A stretch of 64,000 bases of DNA, from NCBI GenBank assembly GCA_012401045.1, contig GCA_012401045.1_4704.2. One strand, given 5' to 3'. Each line of letters begins with the position of its first letter. Position 1 is the first letter of the stretch. Source of the DNA: a phage. The notes under the pieces were generated by a model. The model was not told the origin of the DNA, did not search any database, and saw only the letters and a list, made by a program, of their open reading frames with translations. Both the position numbers and the translations under genes were made by a program. Positions 3,437 to 62,693 of the stretch are shown one piece after another.

Positions 3437-3442
3437 TTATCG

Positions 3443-3470
3443 AGCCTGTCCTTCGGGGCAGGCTTTTTAT
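3443..3470 (+). terminator. rho-independent terminator (hairpin AGCCTGTCC-TTCG-GGGCAGGCT followed by TTTTT)
   Basis: GC-rich stem with tetraloop and T5 tract immediately after the stop of the 2615-3436 gene. Confidence 0.7.
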
Positions 3471-3772: not shown

Positions 3773-4081
3773 ATGAGCAATTTGAACGTTGAATTTACTT
3801 CAACAACGCCTGTCATGAATGGTGTTGGCACTGAAACCAAAATCGTATTAGAACCCATTCCAGGGTTACGCGATCTCGGTGATTTTTATCCACTGATGCC
3901 GCGTATACGGAAGGCCTTAAACAGTATCGATCTTGATTCCAATAAAGATTTCCAACACGATACAGAAAATACCGATCATGTATTGCTGCCATCAGGGATC
4001 GCAAAATTCACCTACACGCAAACATTGAAAGCCTCTGATGGTGAAATCCGTCGTTTTATCGTTGAAGTAGAAAGCGCATAA
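3773..4081 (+). CDS. hypothetical protein (about 102 aa from ATG 3773; ORF track extends to GTG 3680)
   Basis: The GTG at 3680 and ATG at 3731 lack an RBS; ATG at 3773 has AAAAGG upstream; bidirectional hairpin downstream. Confidence 0.4.
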   Translation: MSNLNVEFTSTTPVMNGVGTETKIVLEPIPGLRDLGDFYPLMPRIRKALNSIDLDSNKDFQHDTENTDHVLLPSGIAKFTYTQTLKASDGEIRRFIVEVESA

Positions 4082-4085
4082 AAAC

Positions 4086-4117
4086 CATCCTCCCTTCCCT
4101 TACGGGTTGGGAGGATG
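4086..4117. terminator. conserved GC-rich hairpin family, copy between convergent genes
   Basis: CATCCTCCC-TTCCC-TTAC-GGGTT-GGGAGGATG; minus-strand reading has GTAA loop and is followed by GGTTTTT. Confidence 0.5.
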
Positions 4118-4134
4118 AAATATGCCGTTAAACG

Positions 4135-4764
4135 TTATTCAACAAACCCTGCATTCAACAGATTGTCGTAAACACGATTAGCGACATCAACAGGAGAATG
4201 TGTGTTACTGGTATCTATACGCAGCGTTTTCGCGTCGCCGAGATAGTCCATAAAATCCATGTAACGATAACGTCGTTTATTGAATGTCGCTTCATCGATG
4301 TTATCAAACATCTGATGTTTAGCGTGACGAACACGGAACCGCCTTAAATACGTAGGATAGTCGATATCCAGATAAACATAGTAAGACGGCATGATAATCG
4401 ACGGTAGGTTCGGCAACAATGCGTCAAACAACTTAACGTTGGCATCATTAACCTGATAAACATACGTCGAAGCAATCGAACGATCGCTAAGCACAGTCTT
4501 CCCTTCGTTAAGGGCTGGATGAATCACCTTGTTGAAGAGATGATTACGTTGCGACATCATCGCCAATAGTTCAGTTTCTGGATCGAATCTGTTCGTTGGT
4601 GTCTGATCTTCCAGGATAAGTTTACGAATGGCTTCTCCGTAGAGCGTACCACCGGGTTCACGTACGACACAGACGTTGTTTAAACGACTGTGTAAAGACG
4701 AGATAACCGAACTCTTTCCTGAATAATCCAGACCTTCAATAACGATATATTTATTACGAGACAT
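4135..4764 (-). CDS. tmk: thymidylate kinase (dTMP kinase)
   Basis: P-loop YIVIEGLDYSGKSS and REPGGT motif collinear with bacterial Tmk; ATG at 4764 with GGAG SD (ORF track begins at TTG 4776). Confidence 0.85.
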   Translation of the reverse strand: MSRNKYIVIEGLDYSGKSSVISSLHSRLNNVCVVREPGGTLYGEAIRKLILEDQTPTNRFDPETELLAMMSQRNHLFNKVIHPALNEGKTVLSDRSIASTYVYQVNDANVKLFDALLPNLPSIIMPSYYVYLDIDYPTYLRRFRVRHAKHQMFDNIDEATFNKRRYRYMDFMDYLGDAKTLRIDTSNTHSPVDVANRVYDNLLNAGFVE

Positions 4765-10056: not shown

Positions 10057-11145
10057 ATGAGCGACCTGGCAACAGACAATCGCACAAAAGGGAGTCAGCT
10101 AGCTCCAGACAACAACGTAAGCGTTTTCCGTATCTATGCCTTGGGTACTGTTGCTGCCGACTTTTCCAATAAAAGTCTGGAGGAAGATCCTAACCAGACG
10201 CTGGAGGTCTTTCTTGATGAGATGATGTCAGGCGCTGATGGGAAAGTTGAAGCGGCGGGAAGCGTTAAAGAAGTCAGTGCAACAGACGCTCAAGGGAACA
10301 GTTATACGGCGAAAGCGGCAACGACTACCAGTGTACAGTGTTACTGGTTACCCTTTGGTAGTAACCGGATGACAGCACCTAACTTGAGGAAAGGTCAGCG
10401 TGTGGTGGTTTGGCGTACCGCCGATGAAGAACAACTCTACTGGCAACCCAAAGGAGGGGATAGTGAGCTGATGACCATGGAATCGGTTATCCTCACCGTC
10501 AGCGCACGTCCTAGCGCCAAGAAGGACCGTAAATCGATTTCAACGGAAGACTGCTATTACCTAATGGTTGATACCTTCCTCAAGAAAGCGGTTATCGGCA
10601 CCAGCGCACAGCTTGGTGAAGTTACCCAAGTCTACATGGAACTTAATCTGGACGAGGGTTACCTACAGGTTGCGGACAGCGTTCATCAAAATCTGTTGTT
10701 ACTCCATTTTGTCGAGCATATGCTGCGTTATCAAAACCAGGACGACAGCATCATCGACGTGACAAAAAAGAACATCACGTTCCAGTGCGAGGATACGCTC
10801 AAAGCCATTGCTAAGAACGATATCCGAATGAAAGCAAAAAACATTTATACCGAATGTGAGAACTTCGAGCGTACCAGCAAAACAGAAAGCGTTACGAGTC
10901 AGAATGTTTCTTTGAAGTGTGATCGTTACACCGCGCAAGTATCAGGACAGACCACGTTTAAATGTCCGAATACGGTATTCACTGGAGCTGTAAGCTTCAC
11001 AGGTGAAGACGGAAACACGATGACGTTGAATGGGAACTTCGTACACATCGCAGGCTCTTGGCGTTCACCAACCGGAACAAACGTATACACCCACGATCAC
11101 GGTGGTGTAGATCGTGGTAGCGGTCGTACAGACCCGTTCCAATAA
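10057..11145 (+). CDS. hypothetical protein (362 aa), possibly virion or baseplate associated
   Basis: ATG with AGGAG SD; C-terminal Gly-rich region with HDH motif (THDHGGVDRGSG) loosely reminiscent of spike-tip metal sites; assignment speculative. Confidence 0.45.
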   Translation: MSDLATDNRTKGSQLAPDNNVSVFRIYALGTVAADFSNKSLEEDPNQTLEVFLDEMMSGADGKVEAAGSVKEVSATDAQGNSYTAKAATTTSVQCYWLPFGSNRMTAPNLRKGQRVVVWRTADEEQLYWQPKGGDSELMTMESVILTVSARPSAKKDRKSISTEDCYYLMVDTFLKKAVIGTSAQLGEVTQVYMELNLDEGYLQVADSVHQNLLLLHFVEHMLRYQNQDDSIIDVTKKNITFQCEDTLKAIAKNDIRMKAKNIYTECENFERTSKTESVTSQNVSLKCDRYTAQVSGQTTFKCPNTVFTGAVSFTGEDGNTMTLNGNFVHIAGSWRSPTGTNVYTHDHGGVDRGSGRTDPFQ

Positions 11146-11164
11146 AAAAGAAATGCTATACAAC

Positions 11165-11199
11165 CTCCTTCCCCGGCCTTGACGGCTAGGGAAGGAGGA
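11165..11199 (+). terminator. GC-rich hairpin terminator (variant of the conserved hairpin family)
   Basis: CCTCCTTCC...GGAAGGAGG stem followed by ATTATAGTTTATTTATT. Confidence 0.5.
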
Positions 11200-11213
11200 T
11201 TATAGTTTATTTA

Positions 11214-14938: not shown

Positions 14939-15020
14939 TTAAAAGATCCTCTGTTTTTCACGTTAATTAAACAACGTATTGATTTCTATTTGACAGAACA
15001 CGAACATTGTACGTATCTAT

Positions 15021-15044
15021 CACTTAGGTAATATAGCCGTGAAA
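15021..15044 (-). promoter_or_regulatory. conserved 24-bp promoter-like motif, copy 2
   Basis: Identical to copy at 2489-2512; about 80 nt upstream of the 14938 start. Confidence 0.45.
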
Positions 15045-15151
15045 GGATTTGTGTTACTGTAAGGGTTTTGTTTTTAAGAAGGGATGGATTTAGAAGAGGT
15101 GTTTCAAGGAAGGTAAACGAGGATAGGTATTTTGATTTAAGTAAGTAAGAT

Positions 15152-15249
15152 GTTATCTGTATTGTCTAAGTTATCTTGTTTATCTTAGGTTTAAGTTGTT
15201 TTTATTTATCTTGTTTGTATGTTTAAATTAGATCAATAAGCTTATCTTC
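15152..15249. repeat. iteron-like short direct repeats (five TTATCT-containing units) in AT-rich non-coding region
   Basis: GTTATCTGT, GTTATCTTGTT, TATCTTAGG, TTATCTTGTTTG, CTTATCTTC within about 100 bp. Confidence 0.35.
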
Positions 15250-15263
15250 AAAACAATGGATAA

Positions 15264-15311
15264 CATGTGTTTACTACGCTCGTTGAGTTATAACTCAACG
15301 GTAACACATGT
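15264..15311. repeat. nested inverted repeat (ACATGTGTT ... GTTGAGTTATAACTCAAC ... AACACATGT)
   Basis: 18-bp perfect palindrome flanked by 9-bp inverted arms, inside the gene-free region. Confidence 0.35.
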
Positions 15312-15719
15312 CATCTGTGCATTACACTCCGTTACATGCTAGTTAACAACGTTTTGTGAAGACAAAACGTTCAACTCAAAAAACATTTGTGATACTCTTC
15401 TTCACGTTGTTCATCAGAGTATCTCGTCTATACTCATTGCATTCGTATACGACATAACCGTTATACGCTAACGCTACGCTTATAGCTTGATAACTCTAAG
15501 GATAAAAACATAAACTCGCTTCGCTCGTTTAGTTTTTCTTTTTCTTAGAGTTATCCTGTTGCTCGTCTCTAAAGGACTTCGCTCCTCCCCCGTCCCCCGA
15601 AGGGGCCGAGGTCGTGGAAATTTTACTTTCCAAATACATTTACAACATCTGTAAACTTTTACTCCAGGTACTTAATCTTATCATTAGAAATTATAAAAGA
15701 GAATAAACACAAACATAAA

Positions 15720-15752
15720 CCTTCCTCCTTCCCTTACGGGTTGGAGGAAGGG
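15720..15752 (-). terminator. conserved GC-rich hairpin family copy downstream of the 15763-16656 gene
   Basis: Minus-strand reading CCTTCCTCC-AACCC-GTAA-GGGAA-GGAGGAAGG followed by TTTATGTTTG. Confidence 0.5.
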
Positions 15753-15762
15753 AGAGATTAAA

Positions 15763-16656
15763 TTATTCGGAAACGTTATAACCGAATACTGCTTTACCGT
15801 AGGTGTGGGTACCGTCGGTTAACGACACCACTAACACATTGCTGTACGTAGCGTTAACACCCTTGTCGGTAGACCCGGTGGTAACACCGTTATAGACAAA
15901 GGTAGCTGTTTGCAGATTGGTTTTCAGTTCATTGATGATATCATCACTCACACCGGTCTGCTCTTTGATCAGGGTAGTCAGGTTACCTGCCAGGCTTGCA
16001 TCGATCTTGGTTTCGTTACTGGTAATAGCTTGTAAACCTGCAGTGTAGGTGCTGAAGTCTAACGGATAGGTTAACAGACGTGCTGACGTTTTGGTACCAT
16101 CGCCTTCATCAACATAGGTTAAGTTACCCAGGTTGGTAACCTTGATGATGTTAGCCAGATCCAGCGTGGTGTTATAAACTTTAACTTGAACAGAGCCATA
16201 CCACGCCAACGAATCTTCTTTGGCTTCCAGGGTGATCGTCTGGATACCATGATCGTCGAAGGTAACAGGATTAGCTAACGTATCGGCTTTGATGTCTTTC
16301 GCTTTATCCAGGAACTTCTCACCGGAAGGCGTGATCATACCGTAGCGTTGAGCTACAAGGTCAACCACATCACCGATGGTGGTGTTAGCAGTAACGTTAA
16401 CACGTACGGCGATCTTCTGGAACCACTTAGCCAGATCCAGACGATGGTAGGTAACATCGCGTTCATTGAAGTAAGGGGTACCTTCACCAGGGCTAAGCGT
16501 TAAAGTTGCTTCTGGAGCAGAAGCGCTTTTGGATTTAAGAACGTATTTAAGATCACTGTATTGGAAGCTGGCACCAGTGTCGGCGTTGAGCTGGTTGATC
16601 TCATCAACGATAAGTTGCCAAGGTGTTTTTAAAGTAAGTGAAACTTGAGTTGCCAT
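15763..16656 (-). CDS. paralogous virion-type protein family member (297 aa)
   Basis: ATG with GAGGT SD; shares about 90-aa domain (Y-x-R-L-D-L ... YG[ML] ... LAW[YT]GSVQV) with ORFs at 16798, 27716, 29538 and 30400; codon usage biased. Confidence 0.55.
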   Translation of the reverse strand: MATQVSLTLKTPWQLIVDEINQLNADTGASFQYSDLKYVLKSKSASAPEATLTLSPGEGTPYFNERDVTYHRLDLAKWFQKIAVRVNVTANTTIGDVVDLVAQRYGMITPSGEKFLDKAKDIKADTLANPVTFDDHGIQTITLEAKEDSLAWYGSVQVKVYNTTLDLANIIKVTNLGNLTYVDEGDGTKTSARLLTYPLDFSTYTAGLQAITSNETKIDASLAGNLTTLIKEQTGVSDDIINELKTNLQTATFVYNGVTTGSTDKGVNATYSNVLVVSLTDGTHTYGKAVFGYNVSE

Positions 16657-17340: not shown

Positions 17341-17539
17341 TAAGCACATAGAGCAATAGTATGGGTTTTGTACAGCTCGGCTATTGCTCTTCTACAATTT
17401 GGTTGTAACAATCTGCGTGGTTGCACGCTTATCTTTCTCATTGAGCGCTTCGTATGAAGCGTGGTGTTGAAAGGGTTGTGGATCTCCTCAAGCGGCCAGG
17501 GACCCAGACCAACCTGAATAAACACGAACACCTGTTAAG

Positions 17540-17571
17540 CCCCTCCTCATCCGTTATTGGGTGAGGAGGGG
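17540..17571 (+). terminator. GC-rich hairpin terminator (CCCCTCCTCA...TGAGGAGGGG) followed by TCTTATACGTCTTTATG
   Basis: 10-bp stem, 11-nt loop, T-rich tail, downstream of the 16798-17340 gene. Confidence 0.5.
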
Positions 17572-17634
17572 TCTTATACGTCTTTATGCGTTCCGTTCGT
17601 TCTGGAGCGTTTTAGAACGGTTTACGACAGGGTT

Positions 17635-18270
17635 TTATTCAACACTGAAACCGTTCAAACAGATAGCTTCGTAACGCTTACGTTCACGACGTTTACGCGC
17701 CTGCCAACCGTAAATGAACTTCTCGTCTTTCTCACGACGTTCCGCTAATTCGATGTAATAGGTGCTCTGCATGTCCAGCATTGCATCGATGAGATAATCC
17801 TTACCGGTTGCGCCACGCTTAGCGATATAGGCATCAAGAGCCGCCAGTGATTTGGGGCCCATTGCGCCATCAGCATCAATATCTTTCCAGTAAGTTTGGC
17901 GGTTGTTCATGACGTTCAGATAACGCTGGAGGTTCTTAACTGCGACTGATTTGCCTGCGTTGATACCCAGGTCAAAGAGACGGTCAGCTAAAAACACAGA
18001 ACGTTTCATGACTTCATCAAGCTTCATCTTATCCCAGAAGTGGGCCTTGTAGATAAAGAACGCCATTTCCGTGGTAAGGTTACGCATGTTACCGTTCCAG
18101 CCGAATTTCGTTTTCAGCGTGGTTTTGTATTGATCAGCAAGTGCTTGCGTAATGCCGTGGTTTGTACATTTTCCGCTGTCGTCTGGGTCATCAACATACC
18201 CGCCTTCAACATCGGTTTTGTCGCGAATGATGAATTCGCAGGTAAAATCTTTTTCAGTAATCTTAGCCAT
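17635..18270 (-). CDS. endolysin, GH108-type lysozyme with C-terminal peptidoglycan-binding domain
   Basis: EGGYVDDPDDSGKCTNHGIT motif, YKAHFWD and DGAMGPKSLAAL segments collinear with GH108/PG_binding_3 proteins; ATG with GAGGAG SD. Confidence 0.8.
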   Translation of the reverse strand: MAKITEKDFTCEFIIRDKTDVEGGYVDDPDDSGKCTNHGITQALADQYKTTLKTKFGWNGNMRNLTTEMAFFIYKAHFWDKMKLDEVMKRSVFLADRLFDLGINAGKSVAVKNLQRYLNVMNNRQTYWKDIDADGAMGPKSLAALDAYIAKRGATGKDYLIDAMLDMQSTYYIELAERREKDEKFIYGWQARKRRERKRYEAICLNGFSVE

Positions 18271-18373
18271 TAGAACTCCTCGTTGGAATAACGATTTAGA
18301 GGAACAGGAAGGGTCTAGAACGCGATAAACGATTTAATCCAGGCAAACCCCAGGTTAAACTTTTCTAAGCGTT

Positions 18374-18387
18374 AGAACGCGTTCTAG
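18374..18387. promoter_or_regulatory. 14-bp palindrome TAGAACGCGTTCTA (related CGCGTTCTAGA repeat at about 18315 and TTAGAACGG at about 17605)
   Basis: Repeated GTTCTA-containing palindromic elements flank the endolysin gene. Confidence 0.3.
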
Positions 18388-18396
18388 AGCGCAATA

Positions 18397-20445
18397 TCAA
18401 ATACCTTTGGTTCCTTTCACGTGATGTGCAATTTCTTCAATCATTGCACGCAGGGCACGAAGCTGTTGGTCGTGTTCGTACCAACCGCCTAATAGAACCC
18501 CGCTATACACCATGGTGTCAAGACTTAACAGCCCTTTATCTGATACGTTGATCATTTCCGGGAACTGTTCTTGAACACGCTGTGCGATAACACCGATCTT
18601 CTCGACATCAGGATCGTAGTTGTGACGGAAACGGGCAAGCCCGCTGCGCGCCATTTCACGTAAACGTTCACTGAGAGATTCCGGATGATCTTTCAGATAA
18701 CGGATGTCGTGTTTACTGCGTTCATCCGAGCGGATGTATGCGTTAGGAACATCGATATTGCTGTTGAAGTACAGCGCACTACCACCGCCTGCAGAGTTCC
18801 CCCAATAGAAGCGTGTGATCTCACCGCCACCATTTTCCGTGATGATGACATGTTTACCTAAACGCGTACCACCGTTACCATCAACGAAGACCAGTTTGTT
18901 TCCGCTGTAAGAACCCCAGAACAAGCGTGTATCGATGATGTGTGTTGCAGCGAGACGGGCGTTACGTGGTGTAGAATACACGGTGTTCACATCTTGCTGT
19001 GCATGCGCATCGGAAGCGATACCGTAGTTCTGTACGTTACCCAATCCTACCTGCGCTTTTGTAACAGCATGAGGGTTATCCCGGCGGTTAGCGTGAGCGT
19101 TAACCAGATCACCCGCTAATTTCTGGATTGCCCAGTTGGTAGACTGTGGCGTCATGTAACGGTTAGTTGCAGAACCACCTTGCGCTTCAGCTTGGTTAGC
19201 GGTTGGATAGTTCTCAACGCTCCCTAACCCTACTTGTGCTTTAGACACTTGGTGTGGGTTATTCTTGTCAGCGATGTGTGCATTCAGCGGAACTAACGCG
19301 AAGGTCTCAATGGACGCTTTGGTTGTGTTCGGTGCCATTAATCGGTTAGCTGCAACACCGGCACGCGCTTCTTCTTCAGACGCCATTGGGTAGTCTTGCA
19401 CATTCCCTAACCCAACCTGTGCTTTGGTCACCCTGTGTGGGTTGTTATAATCGGCTTTATGCGCATTAAGCGGAATCAATGCGAATTGTTCGATCGCGGC
19501 AACGGTACGTAGCGGCGTCATGAAACGGTTGTTCGCTGTTCCGGCTTTCGCCTCATCATCCGAAGCGGTCGGGAAGTTATCAACGTTCCCAAGGTTAACC
19601 TGTGCTTTGGTGACGCTGTGTGGGTTATCCCGGCGGTTAGCATGCGCGTCGACTAGATCGCCCGCCAGTTTAGCAATCGCCCAGCCAACCGTTTGTGCGG
19701 TCATGTAACGGTCAGGTGCAGTACCGGCTTCTGCCTCCGCCTTGTTTGCGGTAGGATAGTTCTGTACGTTACCTAGTCCGACTTGGGCTTTTGTTACTTC
19801 GTGCGGGTTATCGGTACGGTTAGCATGCGCGTAATGCAGATCGGTCAGATCTTTATCCGCCGCTTGCATGTCTTTGCGTAGCTGATCGATTGCCGCCCAG
19901 AGACGGTTATCGGACGCAGCATCACCGATAAGTATTGCGGCTTTTAACGAATAGATCGCTAAGCAAAGATGTTCGGTACCGTAAATAGCACTAACGTGGT
20001 GGATGTGTGGTTCAGGCGGATAGAGTTCCGGTTTGTTCTTGATGTCGTCCCAGTTGATCGGACGATCGTCAAGTTTGAGTTCTTCGATAGCCTGATATAA
20101 CGCGTCAATAAGACTTACGTAAACACCACCGATGATACGATAGTCGTTAATTAACGTCCCCTCGATATCATCGTTGATGATGGCGATCGCCGCACAGATT
20201 TCTTTACCTGCGTAAAGCGTCGCATCCTGATACAAGAAGATGGGTTTATAATCCACGCCTCGTACCAGTGTCTTACCGGTAAGCTTTTCAGTGATGACCA
20301 GACTTTCGGTAAAGAACGGTCCGCCATCAAGGGCGTAACATTTATTCTCGGTTCGTGGAACGGTATGCTCTTCACCAACGATGTGGTTGCTGGCGAGTGT
20401 ACCGGTCCAGTCCTCGGGGTACTTCAGGGTAATTGGTGTCGACAT
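18397..20445 (-). CDS. tail fibre protein with C-terminal intramolecular chaperone (S74-type autoproteolytic) domain
   Basis: Five to six repeats of NPHxVTKAQVGLGNVxNY (phage tail fibre repeat type); C-terminal SDERSKHD motif with downstream chaperone-like region. Confidence 0.75.
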   Translation of the reverse strand: MSTPITLKYPEDWTGTLASNHIVGEEHTVPRTENKCYALDGGPFFTESLVITEKLTGKTLVRGVDYKPIFLYQDATLYAGKEICAAIAIINDDIEGTLINDYRIIGGVYVSLIDALYQAIEELKLDDRPINWDDIKNKPELYPPEPHIHHVSAIYGTEHLCLAIYSLKAAILIGDAASDNRLWAAIDQLRKDMQAADKDLTDLHYAHANRTDNPHEVTKAQVGLGNVQNYPTANKAEAEAGTAPDRYMTAQTVGWAIAKLAGDLVDAHANRRDNPHSVTKAQVNLGNVDNFPTASDDEAKAGTANNRFMTPLRTVAAIEQFALIPLNAHKADYNNPHRVTKAQVGLGNVQDYPMASEEEARAGVAANRLMAPNTTKASIETFALVPLNAHIADKNNPHQVSKAQVGLGSVENYPTANQAEAQGGSATNRYMTPQSTNWAIQKLAGDLVNAHANRRDNPHAVTKAQVGLGNVQNYGIASDAHAQQDVNTVYSTPRNARLAATHIIDTRLFWGSYSGNKLVFVDGNGGTRLGKHVIITENGGGEITRFYWGNSAGGGSALYFNSNIDVPNAYIRSDERSKHDIRYLKDHPESLSERLREMARSGLARFRHNYDPDVEKIGVIAQRVQEQFPEMINVSDKGLLSLDTMVYSGVLLGGWYEHDQQLRALRAMIEEIAHHVKGTKGI

Positions 20446-20458
20446 AACCTGGAGGTCC

Positions 20459-23056
20459 TTATAACGTGACTGTACCTAATTTGGTTGTCTTATTGAGATT
20501 AATGACAGAGATCTGGGTATCGCTGGTCGTAATCGTTCCGATATTAACGCGCTGTCCTTTATCATCTTCTTGCTTGTAGATGGTTAACTCCAGTTCTAAC
20601 TGGTCGCCATTAGGAACAACGGAAACGTACCATGTTTTATTACCTGGTGAACTATTATAGTCTTTTAGGTTATAATGGCCTTTAGGTAAGGTCATGGCCT
20701 TACCGGCAAACAAACATGAAATGTCCTCGTTGATATAAACGTCGAAACCGGAAGAAGCGATGACTGTTGAGGCCATTATTCGAGACGCGACGATACCACG
20801 ATTATAGTCGTCGATTGTGGTACCTATGACATTGAATACTTGCCCCCCGTTACCCATAATGGTCGATTCGCTAGTGTTTACGTAGCCGATACCCCAAGTC
20901 GGATGAATGTTCCAGCGGTACCCACTGTTTTGTAAATACGTATACAAGTCTTCATAGGCCGCATTCACCCAACTACCATCACTTTTTCGTCCAGCCCTAA
21001 ATTGGAATGTGTTGCTATTTCCAGATGTTCCTCGGCCAAGAGGGACATGTCCCGCCACCAACCAACCATCTGTACTTTGCATATACGCGAACGAACCGTA
21101 CGCTCTGTTATCGGCCCAAATATTCACGGTATCAACACGTTCAACGTAGGCGATCACCTTTTGTACGCCGGTTATAGCGATTGAACCCTTGCGTGCCGAC
21201 ACATTAACTTCAGCAATTACGACACCCATTTTCCGCTGGCTGCTGTTAAATCCCAATACGACCATTAAACACGGTGCGTTTGTTGTTTCTGGAGGAATCG
21301 TTATCGATTGTTTCCAGTCGGTGATTCCGCTGAGTTTCGTTCCAGTATATGCGTTCCAGACGGTTTGTCCAGCCGATTTCAGATTCTGTTCAGAAATAGA
21401 AATGGCCTCGCCCTCAGGGATTAACGTGTCGTAATTGAGACCAATGTTGCTGGATAGACGAAGGTCGTTTAAGTAAGATCCGCTGAGTGTGACGTTACCG
21501 TTACGATAAATTGTCAAGAATGGCGCAGCCAGGGAGTTTAATACCGTAAAGTTACTCGATGGCATGAAACCATAGACATCGATGCCATTACCGTGGTAAT
21601 GGTAGTTTGTCCAACTACCTTGATAACTTACGGTACGTGCATCGTAGTGGCCTTGTCCAAGACCGCTGCTGGATAACGTGTATATCTTGGTTGCTGATAG
21701 AAATGCGAGATATCCATGCGCTGCCAGAGCTCCAACTACCCTGTCTTTTATCTTTAACCAAGCTGAAGTATACAACGTACTGTCGGGATTCATTTTGGCT
21801 ATTTCATCGTAAGCTGTGCCTGCGAAGTTTCCGATAGTGTACGTACGTATATCCGGCTGTCCGTTATTGTCGTTCTGTACAGCAATTACTTGCCCAGAAT
21901 CATTGATATCGATATTACCGATACAGTTGTGAGCCCCCCACACCCAATATCCATCTTTATAATTGGATTCTCCTTGTGTAAATGTCGACGGTCCTCGCCA
22001 CGCGATGCCGTTCGATTCGGCGTAGTAGGTAGCTTGTCCCGATCCTGGATTCATGGCGTATCTGTTATTGGTCGGGTCAAAATCGATGTAAAAATGATGC
22101 ATTCCTTGACGTTGACGGTTGTCCCGATCATTTGTCCACCACGACGAACCGACCAGAATTCGCGCCTTACCATTTTTTACAGTGGACCATAAACGTATTG
22201 CGGCGCGCCAGACGATTTGACCGATCCCGTTGGACGGGAAACTATTCGTACTGATGCTGTTGCAGACAACGAGCTCGCTGCTGTTGTTTATTTGAGTCCC
22301 TTCAATTGTAACGCCGTTTATGTTAGTAATCAGTGTTGCCGATACACTACCCCCTGTAGGGGCGATAGAGGAACGTTGAACGGTGTAAATTTTTAGTGAT
22401 AATTTATAGCCGCTCCGAATAGCTATACCAATGTAAATAGTTCCGTTAATTTCCCAACAACAAACATCGGGCATTGTTTCTTTGAAATCGGATAAAGCAC
22501 CGTCGATATACATCGCAACGTGTTTACTGGCGTCGAATGTGCCGTCCGTTAACGCGATGAACATTTTGGCATTATTACCGTTGATATCAGCCGCTAATCC
22601 GAGTAGTATGTTGTTCTGATGACAGTAGATGGCTTTAGGTGCTAGATCCAACATAGCTGGTTGGTACTGTCGGCTTGTTGGTATTACGCTAGTAACTGCA
22701 CCATTCTGATCCGTTTTACAAATAACGTAATATACACCGTGTATGATGCTGTTTGTCGCTGACCTCAGTAGGACGATCGTCCCGTCAGATTCACGACATA
22801 TACCGTAATGGCGATAGTCGGTGATTAAACCGATAGCGCCATCGGCCGAACCTTCGATTGCCAGAGGAAAATAACTTTGGTCCCCAACCTGTTCGATATC
22901 GGTTGCGCCAATATCGATGTATTTTTCCATCTCAGTGTTGAACTCAGCGGTACTGTAGGCACCGAGATCGCTCGCCTTTAGTCCCGTTGGGTTGTCACGA
23001 CTGGCGATACGCGTAGTAACGCTACTCACCAGTTCGCTGAACTTTTTCATTGTCAT
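20459..23056 (-). CDS. tail fibre or baseplate-associated protein (865 aa)
   Basis: Embedded in fibre module; N-terminus shares a SEL...DNP...A(A/S) motif with the two downstream small proteins. Confidence 0.5.
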   Translation of the reverse strand: MTMKKFSELVSSVTTRIASRDNPTGLKASDLGAYSTAEFNTEMEKYIDIGATDIEQVGDQSYFPLAIEGSADGAIGLITDYRHYGICRESDGTIVLLRSATNSIIHGVYYVICKTDQNGAVTSVIPTSRQYQPAMLDLAPKAIYCHQNNILLGLAADINGNNAKMFIALTDGTFDASKHVAMYIDGALSDFKETMPDVCCWEINGTIYIGIAIRSGYKLSLKIYTVQRSSIAPTGGSVSATLITNINGVTIEGTQINNSSELVVCNSISTNSFPSNGIGQIVWRAAIRLWSTVKNGKARILVGSSWWTNDRDNRQRQGMHHFYIDFDPTNNRYAMNPGSGQATYYAESNGIAWRGPSTFTQGESNYKDGYWVWGAHNCIGNIDINDSGQVIAVQNDNNGQPDIRTYTIGNFAGTAYDEIAKMNPDSTLYTSAWLKIKDRVVGALAAHGYLAFLSATKIYTLSSSGLGQGHYDARTVSYQGSWTNYHYHGNGIDVYGFMPSSNFTVLNSLAAPFLTIYRNGNVTLSGSYLNDLRLSSNIGLNYDTLIPEGEAISISEQNLKSAGQTVWNAYTGTKLSGITDWKQSITIPPETTNAPCLMVVLGFNSSQRKMGVVIAEVNVSARKGSIAITGVQKVIAYVERVDTVNIWADNRAYGSFAYMQSTDGWLVAGHVPLGRGTSGNSNTFQFRAGRKSDGSWVNAAYEDLYTYLQNSGYRWNIHPTWGIGYVNTSESTIMGNGGQVFNVIGTTIDDYNRGIVASRIMASTVIASSGFDVYINEDISCLFAGKAMTLPKGHYNLKDYNSSPGNKTWYVSVVPNGDQLELELTIYKQEDDKGQRVNIGTITTSDTQISVINLNKTTKLGTVTL

Positions 23057-26383: not shown

Positions 26384-27664
26384 ATGTATACATTGGTAAA
26401 AACTTACGGGTTACCCGTAGGTTCTGGCACGGCCTGGACAGCGCTTGAGGCGGGTGAAAGTGTCCTGAGTACGTTGTTCTCAACGTATCAAAAACTCAAG
26501 ATCCAGGTCCACGAAAGCTATGCTGACCAGCAACAAGTTATTGATCTGTACACATTTCAATCCGAGCTTCAAAACAGCAGCGATACGCTCAATGCGTGGT
26601 TGAAAGCGAAATCGGATGCGCATACCAACCTTCGTGGACAGCCTGGCGAGCTGTCGATTAAAACCCACAAGCTTTATTGTCACGACGCTATTACTGTAGG
26701 CTTTCTCCCTAAAGTCGGTAATAGTGGCTATCATCCGAGCAACGCGATCCCTGAGTCGGAACGCACTGATATCCTGTTGACGAAAGCGAATACGAATTAC
26801 GAAAATATCGGCAAACACTGCTTGTTCACCGTAGGCGGTTATGTTCATCCTCACGTCTACGGTAAAGACGTCGGTGTCTATATCCAGGGTGGGTTCAAGA
26901 CGGCACAGCGCAGCCAAGAAAACGATATCGGCATGATTGATTTTAGCCGTATCGGGAGTTTGGAAATCCATGCTATCACAGAAGAGATGATTGCTGATTC
27001 CACGAAGCTCTTGCCGTATAAGGACGAGATGTACTTGCGGTTACCGCGCAAGGTCGCCGAAGATGAAACCGTCGCGCTGGTGTTCGGGGGATATTTACAT
27101 CTTCTTGACGATTGTTACACGATCGTTAGCGACACGACAGCGAAAATAAACTGCATTAACATGTTTCTCTATGAACGGTACTTCCGTTCCCGTAAATACC
27201 TTGATCTAACATCTCTTGGTATTCTGTTGAACGAAGAAGACCCACAGTCCGACATTGTTGCCAATCGTTTATTGTCCGATAAAGCATTAAAAGCGTGGGT
27301 GACGCATCCTTGCAGTTTCTGGGTGTATATCAAAGCAACATCAATTCAGGTTACGCAAGAACCTTTACCACGAAGCGGTGTACCGGGACAGTATTTCTTA
27401 GGTAAGAAACCGGAAGGATTGATTCGGGCCGATCTCGGTGAGTTACCCGCTTACGTGCAGACCTATGAAAAACCGTTATGGGTACTTCACTCGCGCTGGG
27501 GACTTCGTAAGAACATGTTGTTTGAAAATACGTTGTACAAACATACGCGCGTTAAGCGACTTAACGATACGCCTTATCTTCACCAGGTCTGGTTGGAAAC
27601 GCATGCGACGTTGCAGACAGTACACAAGCTCGAATTGATCGATTCCAGTCAGAAAAACAAATAA
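26384..27664 (+). CDS. hypothetical protein (426 aa)
   Basis: ATG with AAGGGGG SD; divergent from fibre module; followed by conserved hairpin. Confidence 0.5.
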   Translation: MYTLVKTYGLPVGSGTAWTALEAGESVLSTLFSTYQKLKIQVHESYADQQQVIDLYTFQSELQNSSDTLNAWLKAKSDAHTNLRGQPGELSIKTHKLYCHDAITVGFLPKVGNSGYHPSNAIPESERTDILLTKANTNYENIGKHCLFTVGGYVHPHVYGKDVGVYIQGGFKTAQRSQENDIGMIDFSRIGSLEIHAITEEMIADSTKLLPYKDEMYLRLPRKVAEDETVALVFGGYLHLLDDCYTIVSDTTAKINCINMFLYERYFRSRKYLDLTSLGILLNEEDPQSDIVANRLLSDKALKAWVTHPCSFWVYIKATSIQVTQEPLPRSGVPGQYFLGKKPEGLIRADLGELPAYVQTYEKPLWVLHSRWGLRKNMLFENTLYKHTRVKRLNDTPYLHQVWLETHATLQTVHKLELIDSSQKNK

Positions 27665-27674
27665 CCAAACATAA

Positions 27675-27706
27675 CCCTCCTCCAACCCGTAAGGGAAGGA
27701 GGAGGG
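27675..27706. terminator. conserved GC-rich hairpin family copy (CCCTCCTCC-AACCC-GTAA-GGGAA-GGAGGAGGG)
   Basis: Between convergent genes; GNRA-type GTAA loop closed by CCC/GGG. Confidence 0.5.
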
Positions 27707-27715
27707 AATATGCTG

Positions 27716-28621
27716 TTATGCTACATATAACGTCAGATAACCGTCGATGAGCGTATTCATCACACTGAGTTGAAGTACGACAGCTTTACTAACATCTGTA
27801 CGTACACCGAACGGTAGTGTTTTGAATTGCTCTGGATCGGCTATTACTTGCGCATTCTGCAAGTTGAGCGGTCCAGGCATTGCTGACAATACCCAGCGAT
27901 CGTTGACCATAAGGCCGTCGATCTCTTCAGAGAGACCCAATTGCAGTGCGTTCATTTCTGCGATTAGTGCCTCCGATTGCGTATCGCCTGAGGTTAGCGT
28001 ATACCCATCGGTAAGCGATGCCAGAACACCAGCAGATACGAACCAGTTGTACGAAACAATAGCGCCTGGGAGTTTACTGCTATCTCGATCGATGATATAA
28101 TTCAACCCAGCCAACATATTGTTGCGAATGAGGTTGTTGAGGTCGTTATGTCCTGAAGTTAACTCAACAAGTAATTGACCAACCCATACTTGGTTACCAG
28201 GTTTAGGTGTTATCGCAACATGTATCGGTGATTTGGATTTATCCAGATCCGCGTCGACGATCTCGGTTTTATTGAGAAGGATACCGTACGTTGATGCTAA
28301 GACAGGTAATATCTCAGAGACCTTGGTTAGTGTATCTAAGGTTTCGATCTCGATGGGCCAGCGGTGCTGTCCACCAGGCCAAATACCCAGTTTACCAAGA
28401 TCGACGCGGTTATAATAGATGTCGACAGAGTTCACCAGCCCCGAACCCGGTTGGGGATGCACGGTTAACTTGCTGTTACGCTTGTACCCTGTGCTTTCAG
28501 AAGCCTCACCGATAACCAGTTTATCCAGCGTTACGCCTCGAGCATCGAAATCGCTATGCTTTCGAATCAGCCGAAAGAGGATTTCTTTCGATTCTAACCC
28601 TAGGATTTCACTGTACTCCAT
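27716..28621 (-). CDS. paralogous virion-type protein family member (301 aa)
   Basis: Contains the IYYNRVDLGKL ... STYGILL family domain. Confidence 0.5.
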   Translation of the reverse strand: MEYSEILGLESKEILFRLIRKHSDFDARGVTLDKLVIGEASESTGYKRNSKLTVHPQPGSGLVNSVDIYYNRVDLGKLGIWPGGQHRWPIEIETLDTLTKVSEILPVLASTYGILLNKTEIVDADLDKSKSPIHVAITPKPGNQVWVGQLLVELTSGHNDLNNLIRNNMLAGLNYIIDRDSSKLPGAIVSYNWFVSAGVLASLTDGYTLTSGDTQSEALIAEMNALQLGLSEEIDGLMVNDRWVLSAMPGPLNLQNAQVIADPEQFKTLPFGVRTDVSKAVVLQLSVMNTLIDGYLTLYVA

Positions 28622-33875: not shown

Positions 33876-36743
33876 ATGAGTAATAATGACGTTGCGAAGG
33901 CACTCATGAACAAATTTGTCGCTCCTGCTCCGCAGTCACGTCTTTATAATACACGTGATGCGGAAGGAGCGAACGGTCGTTTCGGGTTAGTTGTTCCCGA
34001 CCAAATGACGATGAACACGGTTACGCGTGCGACCGCGACAAACATCGAGGATAATAAAAACATCCTCGAGTTGTTCCCTGAACTTAAACGTGTGATGCAG
34101 ATCTACGTTGCCGCGTTGACGAACCCTAACGATCTTAAGACGGTCGAGATGTTTATCGATAGCGAAGATTTCCCCGGCAGAGTCGCAGAAATCGTTCAGC
34201 CGATGATCGATACCATCGACACGCATTTTAAGAATATCTATAAAATAAAGACGCTTATCCCTCGTATCATCGAAGACGTCTTCTTTATCAAGGGCAGTTA
34301 TAACTTCGTTGTTCTGCCGGAAAGCACGCTCGACCGCGCCATTAATGGTAACGGTCAACTGAAACTTGAAGAATACGGATTTAAAGACAACCATTTTGCA
34401 AGTTGGGGGCTTCTAGGTAACGACAGTCGCAAACGCCACGAAAATCAATTACCTGCGACGGTTTCGATGGAAGATTATTTCTCGGGTGTTAATGAAACCA
34501 TACCGTACGATCCTGTTGTTCGCATAGACAGCATCAAGTTTACCAATACCCTGCTTCGCGATAAGGACGGTAAATTCATTGAAGCGAAGATCGATATTCC
34601 GGATATGGTTACGGTTGTCGATAACCCAGACATCCTCCGCATGCCTATTCTGCATCAACGTCGAGCAGCGACAGCAGTGCAGCGTGCGTTACGCGCAAAC
34701 ACGTTAGGAGGTAGTGGTTTGGTAACGCTGTCAGGCGATCCGACCCTAACCGCTAACCGACGTGAGCTGTCGCAAGAACAGGTTAACGAGATCTGGAATA
34801 AGCTCAACATCCAGCGCCACACCAAGGTATCGCCCGTTTACGCGCTGGCAACCCCAGATACGCTTGATCGTCAAAGCGTTGGCCATCCTGGCGTGATGCA
34901 TGTACCACCTGAGGCATTAGAACCCGTACATGCGCCCGGTGATCCTGAGAACCATATCGGGTATTTGGTTCAGTTGGATGAGTTTGGTTATCCAGTACGT
35001 TTGGTTGAAGATGCGGCGTATTACAAGCAGTTGGAAGGTCGGTTGTCGAAGATCACCGCAGATATCGCAGGTACGTCAAGCAACGGCATGGCGAGCGAGA
35101 TGATTGGTGCAGCCAAGAACATGATCCAGGGTACGTCATGTAATCAGGTAGACATGTCGGCCTTCGTATCATCGTACGAATCGCTGATGCAACGTTACAT
35201 TGTCGAACGTATCGTTAACGGTTATCTTGGCAGTGCGGTGGAGATCGGTGCGACATCATCGTTTTATCTGTCGATGCTTGCTCGTAGCCTCGCTCACAAG
35301 CAGACCCGTGTTTTGTTTATTCCTCGAGAGATGGTGACTTACATCGCTTATGAATACAACAAATACGGTATCGGTCGTTCGCTGCTTGAAAGTACGAAGA
35401 TGATCTCATCGCAACGAGCCATGCTCATGGTTCAAGAACTGATGGCGAAAATCAAAAGTTCGTTGAACTATACGACGCTAAGCGTAATGCTTGAAGACAC
35501 CGACAGAAACCCGGTCGATACCGTCGAACAAGCGCTGCATAGTTTCGCTCGTGTCTACCAGTCTGGTTTCCCTCTGGGTGAAACTAACCCGATGGATATC
35601 ATCAACGCGTACGAACGAAGCTCGATTCGATTGAAGGTTGAGGGGAATAACCCACGCTTCCCGAAATTGAATACAGACGTCAGTGTTGAGCAGCGTAACT
35701 ATCAGTCTCCTGATAATGAGCTGATGGATCGTTACCGTCGTGACCATTTCATGGGCTTGGGTGTGTCTCCGGAGATTATCGATACTTCCTACCAATCTGA
35801 ATTCGCAGCTTCTGTGATTACAGCTAACGCGATGCAAGAGAAACAGTTCACGGTTTGTCGTGAGGTGATCACGAATGGGTTATCGGACCACATCAAGAAA
35901 TATACGGCATACAGTCCCGTGTTGTTGACGTCGTTACGAAACACGGTTCGTGCGAACATGTCTAAGCTCTCCCAGGCACAATTGAAGCAGCTTTTTGGTA
36001 GCGATTTCGAAAACGGTGTTATCCGTAACGTTAACGCCTATCAGGAGATTGACGACCAATCAGCAACAATGGATCTGGATTACACTAAACCAGAAGTCCA
36101 GGAAGTTATTGCCGATGCTTATGTGTCCATGTTCTTAAACAGCCTGCGTGTGCGTTTACCGGATAGCAATGCCCGTCGCCTTGAAGATCAGGTACGTGAA
36201 TATAATCAGTACAAGGAAGCGATTACTGCGCAACTTGATGATTATTTAACGCCTGATTACGTCATGGGTCTGGGTGGGGTTGATGAAACAACGCTGCAGA
36301 TGATCCGCGCATGCATTATTGGTACCGCGATGCGTACGTGGGCAAAAGAGAACAACTTCAATCAGGAGCTGGCTGATCTCTTCAGTCTTGACGATAAGAA
36401 GAATGCCGTGCAAGATTGGAAACGTATGTCCATGGAACATATTGAAGTCATGGGTAAATGCATGGGTGATTTTGCATTGTATATTCAGAATCTGACGAAG
36501 AAGATTGAAGAGAAGATGGGAGCTCAAGCACAGGACGGTAGCGTTTCATCTGATGGTTCGTGGTCATCCGATTCAAGTAGCGATACCGGTTCTTCTGATG
36601 ACTTCGGTGGCGGTGACGATTTCGGAGATACCGATTTCGATACCGAAACGATGGAGGAAACCTCAACAGAAGAAACAACCACATCTGAGGATACGACGAC
36701 CGACACAACGTCAGAAGACGATACTTCAGGTGACATTGTCTAA
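33834..36743 (+). CDS. portal protein candidate (969 aa) with acidic Ser/Thr/Asp-rich C-terminal tail
   Basis: Size and highly acidic low-complexity C-terminus typical of portals; ATG with AAGGAG SD; not confirmed by search. Confidence 0.35.
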   Translation: MNDINKGRVALERQMSNNDVAKALMNKFVAPAPQSRLYNTRDAEGANGRFGLVVPDQMTMNTVTRATATNIEDNKNILELFPELKRVMQIYVAALTNPNDLKTVEMFIDSEDFPGRVAEIVQPMIDTIDTHFKNIYKIKTLIPRIIEDVFFIKGSYNFVVLPESTLDRAINGNGQLKLEEYGFKDNHFASWGLLGNDSRKRHENQLPATVSMEDYFSGVNETIPYDPVVRIDSIKFTNTLLRDKDGKFIEAKIDIPDMVTVVDNPDILRMPILHQRRAATAVQRALRANTLGGSGLVTLSGDPTLTANRRELSQEQVNEIWNKLNIQRHTKVSPVYALATPDTLDRQSVGHPGVMHVPPEALEPVHAPGDPENHIGYLVQLDEFGYPVRLVEDAAYYKQLEGRLSKITADIAGTSSNGMASEMIGAAKNMIQGTSCNQVDMSAFVSSYESLMQRYIVERIVNGYLGSAVEIGATSSFYLSMLARSLAHKQTRVLFIPREMVTYIAYEYNKYGIGRSLLESTKMISSQRAMLMVQELMAKIKSSLNYTTLSVMLEDTDRNPVDTVEQALHSFARVYQSGFPLGETNPMDIINAYERSSIRLKVEGNNPRFPKLNTDVSVEQRNYQSPDNELMDRYRRDHFMGLGVSPEIIDTSYQSEFAASVITANAMQEKQFTVCREVITNGLSDHIKKYTAYSPVLLTSLRNTVRANMSKLSQAQLKQLFGSDFENGVIRNVNAYQEIDDQSATMDLDYTKPEVQEVIADAYVSMFLNSLRVRLPDSNARRLEDQVREYNQYKEAITAQLDDYLTPDYVMGLGGVDETTLQMIRACIIGTAMRTWAKENNFNQELADLFSLDDKKNAVQDWKRMSMEHIEVMGKCMGDFALYIQNLTKKIEEKMGAQAQDGSVSSDGSWSSDSSSDTGSSDDFGGGDDFGDTDFDTETMEETSTEETTTSEDTTTDTTSEDDTSGDIV

Positions 36744-36773
36744 ACGGATGTAAAAAAAATAACACATAGTTAA

Positions 36774-36809
36774 CCTTCTCCCCAACCCGATGAGGGAAGG
36801 GGAGAAGGG
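36774..36809 (+). terminator. conserved GC-rich hairpin family variant followed by T-rich tract
   Basis: CCTTCTCCCC-AACCC-GATGA-GGGAA-GGGGAGAAGG then CTATGCGCTATTTAATTTATT. Confidence 0.5.
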
Positions 36810-36828
36810 CTATGCGCTATTTAATTTA

Positions 36829-37101
36829 TTACGAGGTTAACCACGATTCAATTGTGGTGAGTTTGCTTCTCAGTACGCGCCAACTAGGGTGTGGTGGGAT
36901 CACAGCGCCTTTGTCGATTACGGTTAGCTGAACCTGGTACTTCTGCTGCATACGCGCTACCGTGTCGCTTATCGAGAGGAAAAGCTGGTAACGTTCATAT
37001 GCCGTCAGTTCACTGTCCTGTTGAACTGCGTTGGCCGCTAACGTAATTTCGCGTAAGTCCTTTGCATCCACAGAGACGGTAATGAGTTTATATTGACTCA
37101 T
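36829..37101 (-). CDS. hypothetical small protein (90 aa)
   Basis: ORF convergent with the portal candidate. Confidence 0.4.
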   Translation of the reverse strand: MSQYKLITVSVDAKDLREITLAANAVQQDSELTAYERYQLFLSISDTVARMQQKYQVQLTVIDKGAVIPPHPSWRVLRSKLTTIESWLTS

Positions 37102-43202: not shown

Positions 43203-43236
43203 TTTTTTCTATTCGCAACGATAAACGGCATAGAAA

Positions 43237-43266
43237 CCTCCCCCAACCCTTGCGGGCTGAGGGAGG
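43237..43266 (-). terminator. GC-rich hairpin (family variant) downstream of the capsid-like gene
   Basis: Minus-strand CCTCCC...GGGAGG stem followed by TTTCTATGCC. Confidence 0.45.
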
Positions 43267-43365
43267 CTGACTTATGTATCACGGTGCCGGATGAATGTCC
43301 GGTGCAATGAAACCATCCGCAACGTTGTCATCAAGAATATCATCCAACGAAGCAGCTACGGTAGT

Positions 43366-51385: not shown

Positions 51386-51419
51386 TAAACTGGAGTAATG
51401 CGAAATAAGACAGCATAAG

Positions 51420-51451
51420 CCCTCTCCCAACCCGTAAGGGAAGGGAGAGGG
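51420..51451 (-). terminator. conserved GC-rich hairpin family copy
   Basis: CCCTCTCCC-AACCC-GTAA-GGGAA-GGGAGAGGG just past the stop of the 51456-52823 gene. Confidence 0.5.
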
Positions 51452-51455
51452 AATA

Positions 51456-56672: not shown

Positions 56673-56724
56673 CGCAGATTCCTGTTTGAAAGATAAGATA
56701 TCACATGATGGTCGACAGCATAAA

Positions 56725-56744
56725 GCCCACCCCGAAGGGCGGGC
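56725..56744 (-). terminator. hairpin GCCCGCCC-TTCG-GGGTGGGC (minus-strand reading) followed by TTTATG
   Basis: Immediately downstream of the 1125-aa gene stop. Confidence 0.45.
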
Positions 56745-56760
56745 TGTTTATGCGTACGGA

Positions 56761-62545: not shown

Positions 62546-62652
62546 TTGGGACTCCTACGTAGGAAAATCTTGGCGGGTGATCATGTCCGCCATTTACCTT
62601 CTGAACCGTTGATTCAGAAGTCAAAAGATAACCGGATACCAACGCCATAAAC

Positions 62653-62684
62653 CTTCCTCCAACCCAACAGGGAAGGAGGAAGGG
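62653..62684 (-). terminator. conserved GC-rich hairpin family copy (loop variant AACA)
   Basis: CCTTCCTCC-AACCC-AACA-GGGAA-GGAGGAAGG; minus strand followed by TTTATGGCG. Confidence 0.5.
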
Positions 62685-62693
62685 ATATGGTGA

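Follow-up and report, generated by a model that had tools for sequence, protein, structure and literature searches.

What are the palindromic repeats around the endolysin gene of this phage, and do they act on its expression? An earlier note on the same DNA had proposed that a 14-bp palindrome, a second copy of its motif about 55 nt away and an inverted repeat downstream bracket the gene, as regulatory sites and a terminator controlling lysis. Judged from its sequence, the window, by which we mean the whole 64,000-nucleotide stretch analysed here, comes from a Goslar-like nucleus-forming jumbo phage (Chimalliviridae). The 4-kb stretch around the locus is 95.5% identical to Escherichia phage vB_EcoM_Goslar (NC_048170; Goslar coordinates minus ~63 give window coordinates), and the gene order is that of Goslar: gp26-gp25-gp24-terminator. 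The endolysin is the homologue of Goslar gp24. The gene before it is the homologue of Goslar gp25, which has been detected in virions as a presumed peripheral component of the baseplate or tail fibres. The spacer between the two genes is 126 nt long, with no small ATG-started ORF on its sense strand; the intergenic spacers from gp29 to gp25 measure 4–57 bp. The features discussed below are collected in Table 1.

Table 1. Positions in the window of the genes, repeats and predicted RNA elements around the endolysin gene.
Feature	Position	Strand	Basis or remark
gp23 homologue, convergent	ends at 17340	+	
Bidirectional terminator, GC-rich hairpin CCCCTCCTC...GAGGAGGGG	17539..17572	.	Annotated in Goslar
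Downstream inverted repeat of the earlier note, CGTTCTGGAGCGTTTTAGAACG, 6-bp arms	17598..17619	.	Judged part of no element
Endolysin gene, GH108 + PG_binding_3, Goslar gp024 homologue	17635..18270	-	
Endolysin Shine-Dalgarno (SD), GAGGAG	18276..18281	-	
Pyrimidine tract UUCCUC, weak predicted pairing with the endolysin SD	18299..18304	-	RNAalifold helix 4
Extended RNA hairpin, 75 nt, in the gp25-endolysin spacer	18314..18388	-	Single-sequence folds, RNAalifold, pair counts, covariance model
Outer-stem 3' arm CGCGUUCUAGA, the "second CGCGTTCTAGAC" of the earlier note	18314..18324	-	
Inner hairpin GUUUAAC CUGGG GUUUG CCUGG A UUAAAU	18332..18360	-	Inverted copy in L022
Perfect 14-bp palindrome TAGAACGCGTTCTA	18373..18386	.	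3' part of 5' arm plus partial proximal 3'-arm copy
Outer-stem 5' arm UCUAGAACGCG, begins 9 nt past the gp25 stop codon	18378..18388	-	
Tail-fibre-like gene, C-terminal Peptidase_S74 chaperone domain, Goslar gp025 homologue	18397..20445	-	
gp26 homologue	20459-23056	-	

The repeats themselves were found much as described. The palindrome TAGAACGCGTTCTA is real and perfect over its 14 bp, but lies one base away from 18374-18387, where it had been placed. The second CGCGTTCTAGAC is present as well, but on the other strand, as the reverse complement GTCTAGAACGCG at 18313-18324; the exact 11-mer TCTAGAACGCG occurs at 18314-18324 on the plus strand and at 18378-18388 on the minus strand, with 53 nt between. 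The inverted repeat downstream of the gene is there too, its 6-bp arms separated by a 10-nt loop. Taken singly, none of the noted sequences exceeds chance expectation. In the window TAGAACG has 6 occurrences where 8.9 are expected, and GTTCTAGA with at most one mismatch has 47 where 43.7 are; a motif search with these two, TCTAGAACGCG and the mismatched 14-mer returned no enrichment in the window, and the 14-bp palindrome has no further copy in the window or the remainder of Goslar. Perfect 14-bp palindromes number 12 in the window against 4.5 ± 2.1 in simulated sequence, so that TAGAACGCGTTCTA is individually unremarkable, and four loci carry an inverted repeat whose arms measure 11 bp or more and lie within 100 nt. 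What does stand above chance is the conserved long-range pairing between the two upstream copies.

According to structure predictions, the upstream palindromes are the paired arms of a single, conserved RNA hairpin formed on the gene-sense strand. In both the MFE and the centroid folds of the minus strand, UCUAGAACGCG pairs with CGCGUUCUAGA. Above this outer stem of 11 bp the predicted hairpin has a 4x3 internal loop, at about 18325-18327 and 18374-18377, then 4 bp of AACG paired with CGUU, an A-rich bulge of 9 nt and, innermost, a hairpin of 11–12 bp. Independent folds of the window and of four relatives (L022, L019, L004 and L003) gave the identical architecture, with z-scores of -3.4 to -5.4, and the RNAalifold consensus was the same. 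The sense strand folded better than the antisense strand in every case (MFE of -27 to -36 against -15 to -26 kcal/mol; -36.3 against -15.7 kcal/mol in L019), and the G·U pairs of the sense strand become A·C on the opposite strand. The hairpin has a GC content of ~43%, with UCUAGAACGCG, AACG and GUUUAAC as its stems. Folded together with its flanks it reached a z-score of only -1.0, and in a genome-wide scan of 90-nt windows it ranked below the top 22 regions by stability, most of them terminators.

We gathered relatives from IMG/VR, metagenomes and assemblies, which yielded 20 hairpin-bearing sequences, 14 of them distinct; beyond this set there are roughly 57 more endolysin clusters with identities of at least 91%. 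All 20 of the Goslar-clade sequences examined carry the hairpin, once per genome. The 14-bp palindrome is intact in 7 of the 14 distinct sequences. Partial extra copies of CGTTCTA flank the 5' arm and are polymorphic among the relatives; the proximal copy, and hence TAGAACGCGTTCTA, is present in the window, L003, L018, L019, L021 and others. Goslar, L004 and L020 have TAGAACGCGTTGTA instead and have gained a different, overlapping palindrome, CGTTCTAGAACG, and L022 has neither palindrome and nonetheless keeps the long-range stem. From these sequences we infer that the 14-bp palindrome is probably a by-product rather than the unit of function, with no function of its own.

Pairing is what the relatives retain. 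In the alignment of the 14 distinct sequences, which was fitted to the model and is of low diversity, 97.1% of cells were paired, against 21–49% when the partners were slid. The number of extra pair types was 16, against 13.4 ± 0.8 in shuffles (reached in 2 of 500); the covariation score was 0.140 against 0.123 (3 of 500); and three pairs had changed on both sides (4 of 500). The outer stem holds only one clean compensatory pair. Among single changes at Watson-Crick pairs, eight kinds stay paired as G·U and one breaks pairing. In the adjacent endolysin coding sequence A>G and C>T together make up 96 of 269 variant types (36%), with no strand bias, and a binomial test of 8 out of 9 at p = 0.357 gave P ~0.002. 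At unpaired positions of the hairpin, transversions predominate among the changes. Taken together, the wobble variation and the strand asymmetry in these sequences look like a signature of RNA pairing and not of a DNA-binding site.

This bears directly on the reading of the earlier note, taken in the sense that a dimeric regulator binds the palindromes as DNA operators and that the lysis gene has a terminator at its flank. In its favour, the perfect 14-bp palindrome does have a related 12-mer within 75 bp, both of them upstream of the gene, and its two 7-bp half-sites recall the operators of helix-turn-helix dimers. Here, though, the half-site is neither conserved nor recurring, and the variation preserves pairing, not sequence: Goslar reads TACAACGCGTTCTA, L022 has no palindrome and others have the different, overlapping one; no other part of the window or of Goslar is enriched in the motif; wobble-type changes with strand asymmetry are marks of RNA; and the downstream repeat is polymorphic, with the real terminator elsewhere. 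We regard operators as extremely improbable. What survives of the proposed regulatory sites is the upstream pair, as part of a conserved cis element beside the lysis gene that may influence expression; the DNA palindromes as such are not conserved and do not recur.

The downstream repeat fares no better. Across 10 related sequences its left arm reads CGTTCT in five, CGTCCT in four and CGCCCT in Goslar, and a sister clade has a terminator 11 nt past the endolysin stop and no downstream repeat. For a terminator the repeat is weak, it is polymorphic and the sister clades lack it, and speaking of repeats that bracket the gene has little meaning when the downstream member varies among relatives; it probably has no function of its own. 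We also rejected it as an RNA hairpin: its plus-strand variants could all pair through G·U, but 6 bp closing a loop of 10 nt make too feeble a structure to bear an argument. Termination belongs to the GC-rich hairpin further downstream, which is followed by CTTATACGT on the plus strand and by a GT-rich tail, ...GTGTTTATTC, on the minus strand, a tail shared with the terminator after gp22. About ten similar terminators occur in the window, built as CCTCC..CCC-loop-GGG..GGAGG and followed by TTTATG or TTAT. In phiKZ the same motif (CCYCCCC...GGGRRGG, then TTAT) has been mapped experimentally at 61 terminators (Putzeys et al. 2024, PMC10914365). For annotation, the lesson is that real terminators in this phage follow the phiKZ motif and that lone 14-bp palindromes say little.

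Could the upstream hairpin itself be a partial terminator, an attenuator for the phage non-virion RNA polymerase that lowers endolysin transcription relative to the structural genes? As an intergenic stem-loop just past a stop codon in a chimallivirus genome it resembles the phiKZ-type terminators; a pyrimidine-rich tract comes after it, and the inner hairpin with CGUU is followed by UUAU, recalling the phiKZ-type TTAT tail. It differs from them in being AU-rich, 75 nt long and irregular, without the TTAT(G) tail or, at the level of gene counts, a marked drop in reads. The phage's own terminators form a tight sequence family to which the hairpin does not belong: the GC-rich CCYCC...GGRGG stem and TTTATG tail of the roughly ten terminators in the window are missing, and the outer stem leads into CCCUUCCUGUUCC, with no U-run. 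A scan for sigma-70 promoters and generic terminators called nothing at the hairpin site, and the phiKZ-type late promoter motif TATG is absent from the spacer (a chance occurrence in L022 excepted).

Published expression data bear on the same point. Dividing gene-level RNA-seq counts (Armbruster et al., bioRxiv 10.1101/2023.09.20.558163) by annotated gene lengths gave, for Goslar at 30 min post-infection, ~881, 723, 725, 672, 729 and 529 reads/kb from gp29 to gp24. In the same published data, all of these genes fall 16- to 60-fold on knockdown of the nuclear shell (ChmA). The counts fit one late transcript running through the hairpin into the endolysin gene. From gp25 to gp24 the ratio is 0.73 (~729 to ~529 reads/kb), on gene-level counts only, and this 27% drop lies within the gene-to-gene scatter of the operon (529–881 reads/kb). 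Strong termination at the hairpin is excluded by the counts, with which modest attenuation is compatible; we consider an attenuator improbable.

Another possibility is that the RNA controls translation of the endolysin, delaying or limiting synthesis by sequestering the SD through UUCCUC/GAGGAG or through alternative pairings. In phage T4, the lysozyme gene e is reportedly controlled by a translational hairpin that contains the ribosome-binding site, with a late promoter inside. The likeness is an RNA structure upstream of a lysozyme or endolysin gene that could limit translation from read-through transcripts, and the timing of endolysin synthesis is a plausible target of control. RNAalifold predicts the UUCCUC/GAGGAG helix in 8 of 8 sequences, with a C>U change giving U·G, and the duplicated UAAAUCGUU and AACG/CGUU motifs could permit alternative pairings. 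Here, however, the hairpin ends ~33 nt before the SD, which together with the AUG lies outside the conserved structure; no promoter motif is present; and the helix over the SD is short, its variation uninformative because C>U opposite G is always tolerated. The stretch ACGAGGAGTTCTAATG at the SD is invariant in every hairpin-bearing genome without an HNH insertion. In the two genomes with such an insertion (L003 and L047) the SD-proximal region is wholly replaced, and sister clades have a plain spacer of 11–20 nt. Translational control by the spacer RNA seems to us quite improbable.

The distribution of the hairpin ties it to a narrow lineage and to a variable place in the genome. With the covariance model (R1), no extra copy turned up in the window, in the remainder of Goslar, at distant endolysin loci or at those of the sister clades; when IMG/VR was scanned for the exact two-arm pattern, only three Goslar-like contigs matched; and BLAST, apart from Goslar itself, returned nothing in phages, in complete genomes of E. 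coli or in plasmids. Rfam gave no match at E <= 1 between 16500 and 19000 save a spurious snoRNA and none at gathering score in the whole window, where no tRNAs were found either. A repeated mobile palindrome of the MITE or REP kind was ruled out by the single copy per genome and the lack of copies in unrelated genomes.

Sister clades with endolysins at 71%, 68% and 60% identity leave only 16, 11 and 20 nt, respectively, between the upstream gene and the endolysin, with no hairpin; these are relatives with a conserved endolysin context that lack the repeats, an outcome which the earlier note had itself named as refuting its proposal and which tells against a general regulator of the lysis gene. 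In L038, from the 71% clade, the gene before the endolysin is a gp26 homologue (E 7e-129) and not gp25. The sister clades thus lack both gp25 and the hairpin, which indicates that gp25 and the 126-nt spacer are an insertion specific to the Goslar clade, and that the hairpin is dispensable for endolysin expression in general. L003 and L047 carry a gene for a 369-aa HNH/EndoVII-like endonuclease on the opposite strand, upstream of the endolysin. The cassette in L003 lies between ...AAATCGTTATT and the endolysin SD and has its own canonical terminator; the hairpin there remains intact beside gp25, and a new SD region precedes the endolysin. Parted from the endolysin by a cassette with its own terminator, the hairpin is excluded as an obligatory part of the 5' UTR. 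In L022 another gene takes the upstream place, for a 318-aa protein with weak similarity to Goslar gp087, and the hairpin follows it nonetheless. Wherever it occurs, the hairpin lies at the 3' end of a cargo gene in a variable slot between gp26 and the endolysin, and marks the 3' edge of that slot.

Such a position invites the explanation that the hairpin is a functionless relic, either the scar of a junction or a palindrome carried along as a passenger, dating from the insertion of the gp25 cassette or from a mobile element once present there. The youth of the clade would explain the relic's persistence, together with template switching and inversion, which preserve palindromes. The hairpin is missing in sister clades that share the gene order, the site is an insertion hot spot (the HNH cassette in L003 and L047, the other cargo gene in L022), thermodynamic stability is unremarkable, and hairpin identity among relatives (93–97%) is near that of the gp25 3' end. 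L022 adds an instance of inversion: its inner hairpin scored 9 against the reverse complement of the others and -3 in the forward direction, with a null of -6.3 ± 3.1. The apparent covariation there is therefore an inversion, which preserves a hairpin without selection. Other observations do not sit well with a relic. Correction of quasipalindromes would not favour wobble pairs, whereas the changes on the sense strand run 8:1 for G·U over A·C beside a coding sequence free of strand bias. L022 keeps the outer stem although the remainder of its spacer is too diverged for BLAST, and in L004, L019, L020 and L021 the hairpin is more conserved than the adjacent endolysin coding sequence. We consider a relic unlikely, if by no means negligible.

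The best reading, to which we give an even chance on the strength of position and shape, is a post-transcriptional, intercistronic mRNA hairpin that affects stability, processing or insulation. It would lie within a late, nucleus-dependent transcript that ends at the GC-rich terminator, where it could protect or define the 3' end of the upstream (cargo) cistron. It might also be a processing site of the RNase III/E type, and it may shield translation of the endolysin from the gene before it, which would adjust how much the two genes yield relative to each other. Coliphage T7 has about ten intercistronic RNase III processing hairpins (e.g. R1.1), and E. coli operons contain hundreds of REP elements, intercistronic stem-loops that stabilise 3' ends. 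Like them, the structure here is irregular, contains an internal loop and lies between two cistrons, in this case of a late polycistronic message of a phage that infects E. coli. Set against a T7-like RNase III site, where about two turns of dsRNA are interrupted by an internal loop, the predicted fold has an 11-bp lower stem, the 4x3 loop and 4 + 12 bp above, with the 9-nt bulge interrupting the upper part; this bulge, the single copy per genome and the restriction to one lineage are where it differs from T7 and REP hairpins. By analogy with those systems, differential stability or expression of the flanking genes would be expected.

A bolder proposal, that the hairpin is a cis-signal of the Goslar clade, either the fixed right-hand boundary of a swappable host-range (tail-fibre) cassette slot or a site recognised by an RNA-binding or export factor of the phage that times the use of endolysin mRNA, strikes us as a long shot. 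In nucleus-forming phages transcription takes place in the phage nucleus and translation apart from it, in the cytoplasm. The cis-acting RNA elements of these jumbo phages are almost uncharted. The hairpin, unannotated in Goslar, is in kind an ordinary intercistronic mRNA hairpin and a modest, lineage-specific find; it offers a concrete, mutable site for studying expression balance in late operons. The slot beside it, occupied by gp25, an alternative gene or an HNH cassette, is relevant to host-range engineering in Goslar-like phages. One further role considered for the hairpin, stimulation of read-through at the gp25 stop codon, was rejected: the stop is UGA or UAA depending on the genome, and the in-frame extension amounts to just 13 codons.

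The endolysin operon's terminator, a GC-rich hairpin past the endolysin gene, belongs to a family of near-identical terminators in the window, each of the form CCTCC..CCC-loop-GGG..GGAGG followed by TTTATG, TTAT or CTATG. This family agrees with the motif that was mapped for phiKZ, a Pseudomonas phage (PMC10914365); the signal is thus shared across genera of chimalliviruses. TATG, the start motif of phiKZ late promoters, is frequent within the tails of the window's terminators.

Positions of terminators, genes and repeats in the window and in related contigs
Feature	Sequence	Position	Strand
Terminator family member	window	3442-3465	+
Terminator family member	window	4071-4160	-
Terminator family member	window	11121-11210	-
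Terminator family member	window	15701-15790	
Terminator family member	window	17539-17572	
Terminator family member	window	27651-27740	-
Terminator family member	window	36741-36830	-
Terminator family member	window	43235-43268	-
Terminator family member	window	51401-51490	+
Terminator family member	window	56724-56745	-
Terminator family member	window	62601-62690	-
Intergenic stretch, gp23 stop to terminator	window	17341-17535	
Gap between gp21 and gp22 homologues (824 bp)	window	14939-15762	
Perfect 14-bp palindromes	window	1781, 5518, 5707, 7736, 12991, 15284, 15933, 18373, 33138, 48170, 55935, 60900	
433-aa ORF containing an inverted repeat	window	61244-62545	-
HNH/EndoVII-like endonuclease gene (369 aa)	L003	1880-2989	-
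HNH/EndoVII-like endonuclease gene	L047	1-689	-
gp25-replacing gene and inverted inner hairpin	L022	96-1052 and 1065-1157	

The intergenic stretch between the gp23 stop codon and the operon terminator is 97.4-100% identical across all Goslar-clade relatives, compared with 85-96% for the genes on either side. Its plus strand is predicted to fold into a chain of hairpins with the terminator at its end (z -5.6), and its minus strand carries a 64-aa ORF that is open in all relatives, was predicted as a gene in one assembly and had no match in Pfam, PHROG or Rfam. The sister clade retains a spacer of ~250 nt, whose likeness to this stretch was judged by eye only. Candidate roles for the stretch are a structured 3'UTR, an sRNA or the coding sequence of a small protein.

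On the other side of the endolysin gene, where a conserved 75-nt RNA hairpin lies between gp25 and the endolysin, the relatives vary in gene content. Some Goslar-like genomes carry a 369-aa HNH/EndoVII-like gene upstream of the endolysin, and most lack it; in contig L003 it separates the hairpin from the endolysin SD and has a canonical terminator of its own. Its pattern of presence and absence is that of a free-standing homing endonuclease. In the divergent Goslar-like contig L022, the place of gp25 is taken by a different, 318-aa gene (36% identity to Goslar gp087 over 83 aa), and the element carries its inner hairpin in inverted orientation compared with every other genome (GGCAAACC versus GGTTTGCC).

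Endolysins at least 91% identical to that of the window form 57 clusters (P0001-P0057). Many of these lie on 235-245 kb contigs filed with isolate assemblies of E. coli, Salmonella, Shigella or Enterobacter, which makes Goslar-like jumbo phages common passengers of enterobacterial sequencing projects. P0001, whose 105-kb contig bears the label E. coli, is 100% identical to the window endolysin. Because the Goslar annotation also names as 'endolysin' a second protein, the SleB-like Hydrolase_2 gp098 (NC_048170, 110508-111005), the GH108 protein adjoining the hairpin may not be the sole, or even the main, lysis enzyme.

Further inverted repeats occur elsewhere in the window. The gp21 and gp22 homologues are separated by a gap that contains no ORF of at least 60 aa and holds long AU-rich hairpins on the minus strand, one at 15471-15560, whose outer arms are 12 bp long (GGATAACTCTAAG/CTTAGAGTTATC), and another at 15251-15340. 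Perfect 14-bp palindromes are in excess over the whole window (12 versus 4.5 +/- 2.1 in first-order Markov simulations), and the coding region of a 433-aa ORF contains an inverted repeat at 61969-62024 whose arms are 14 bp long (GGATGAAGATAACGC ... GCGTTATCTTCATC).
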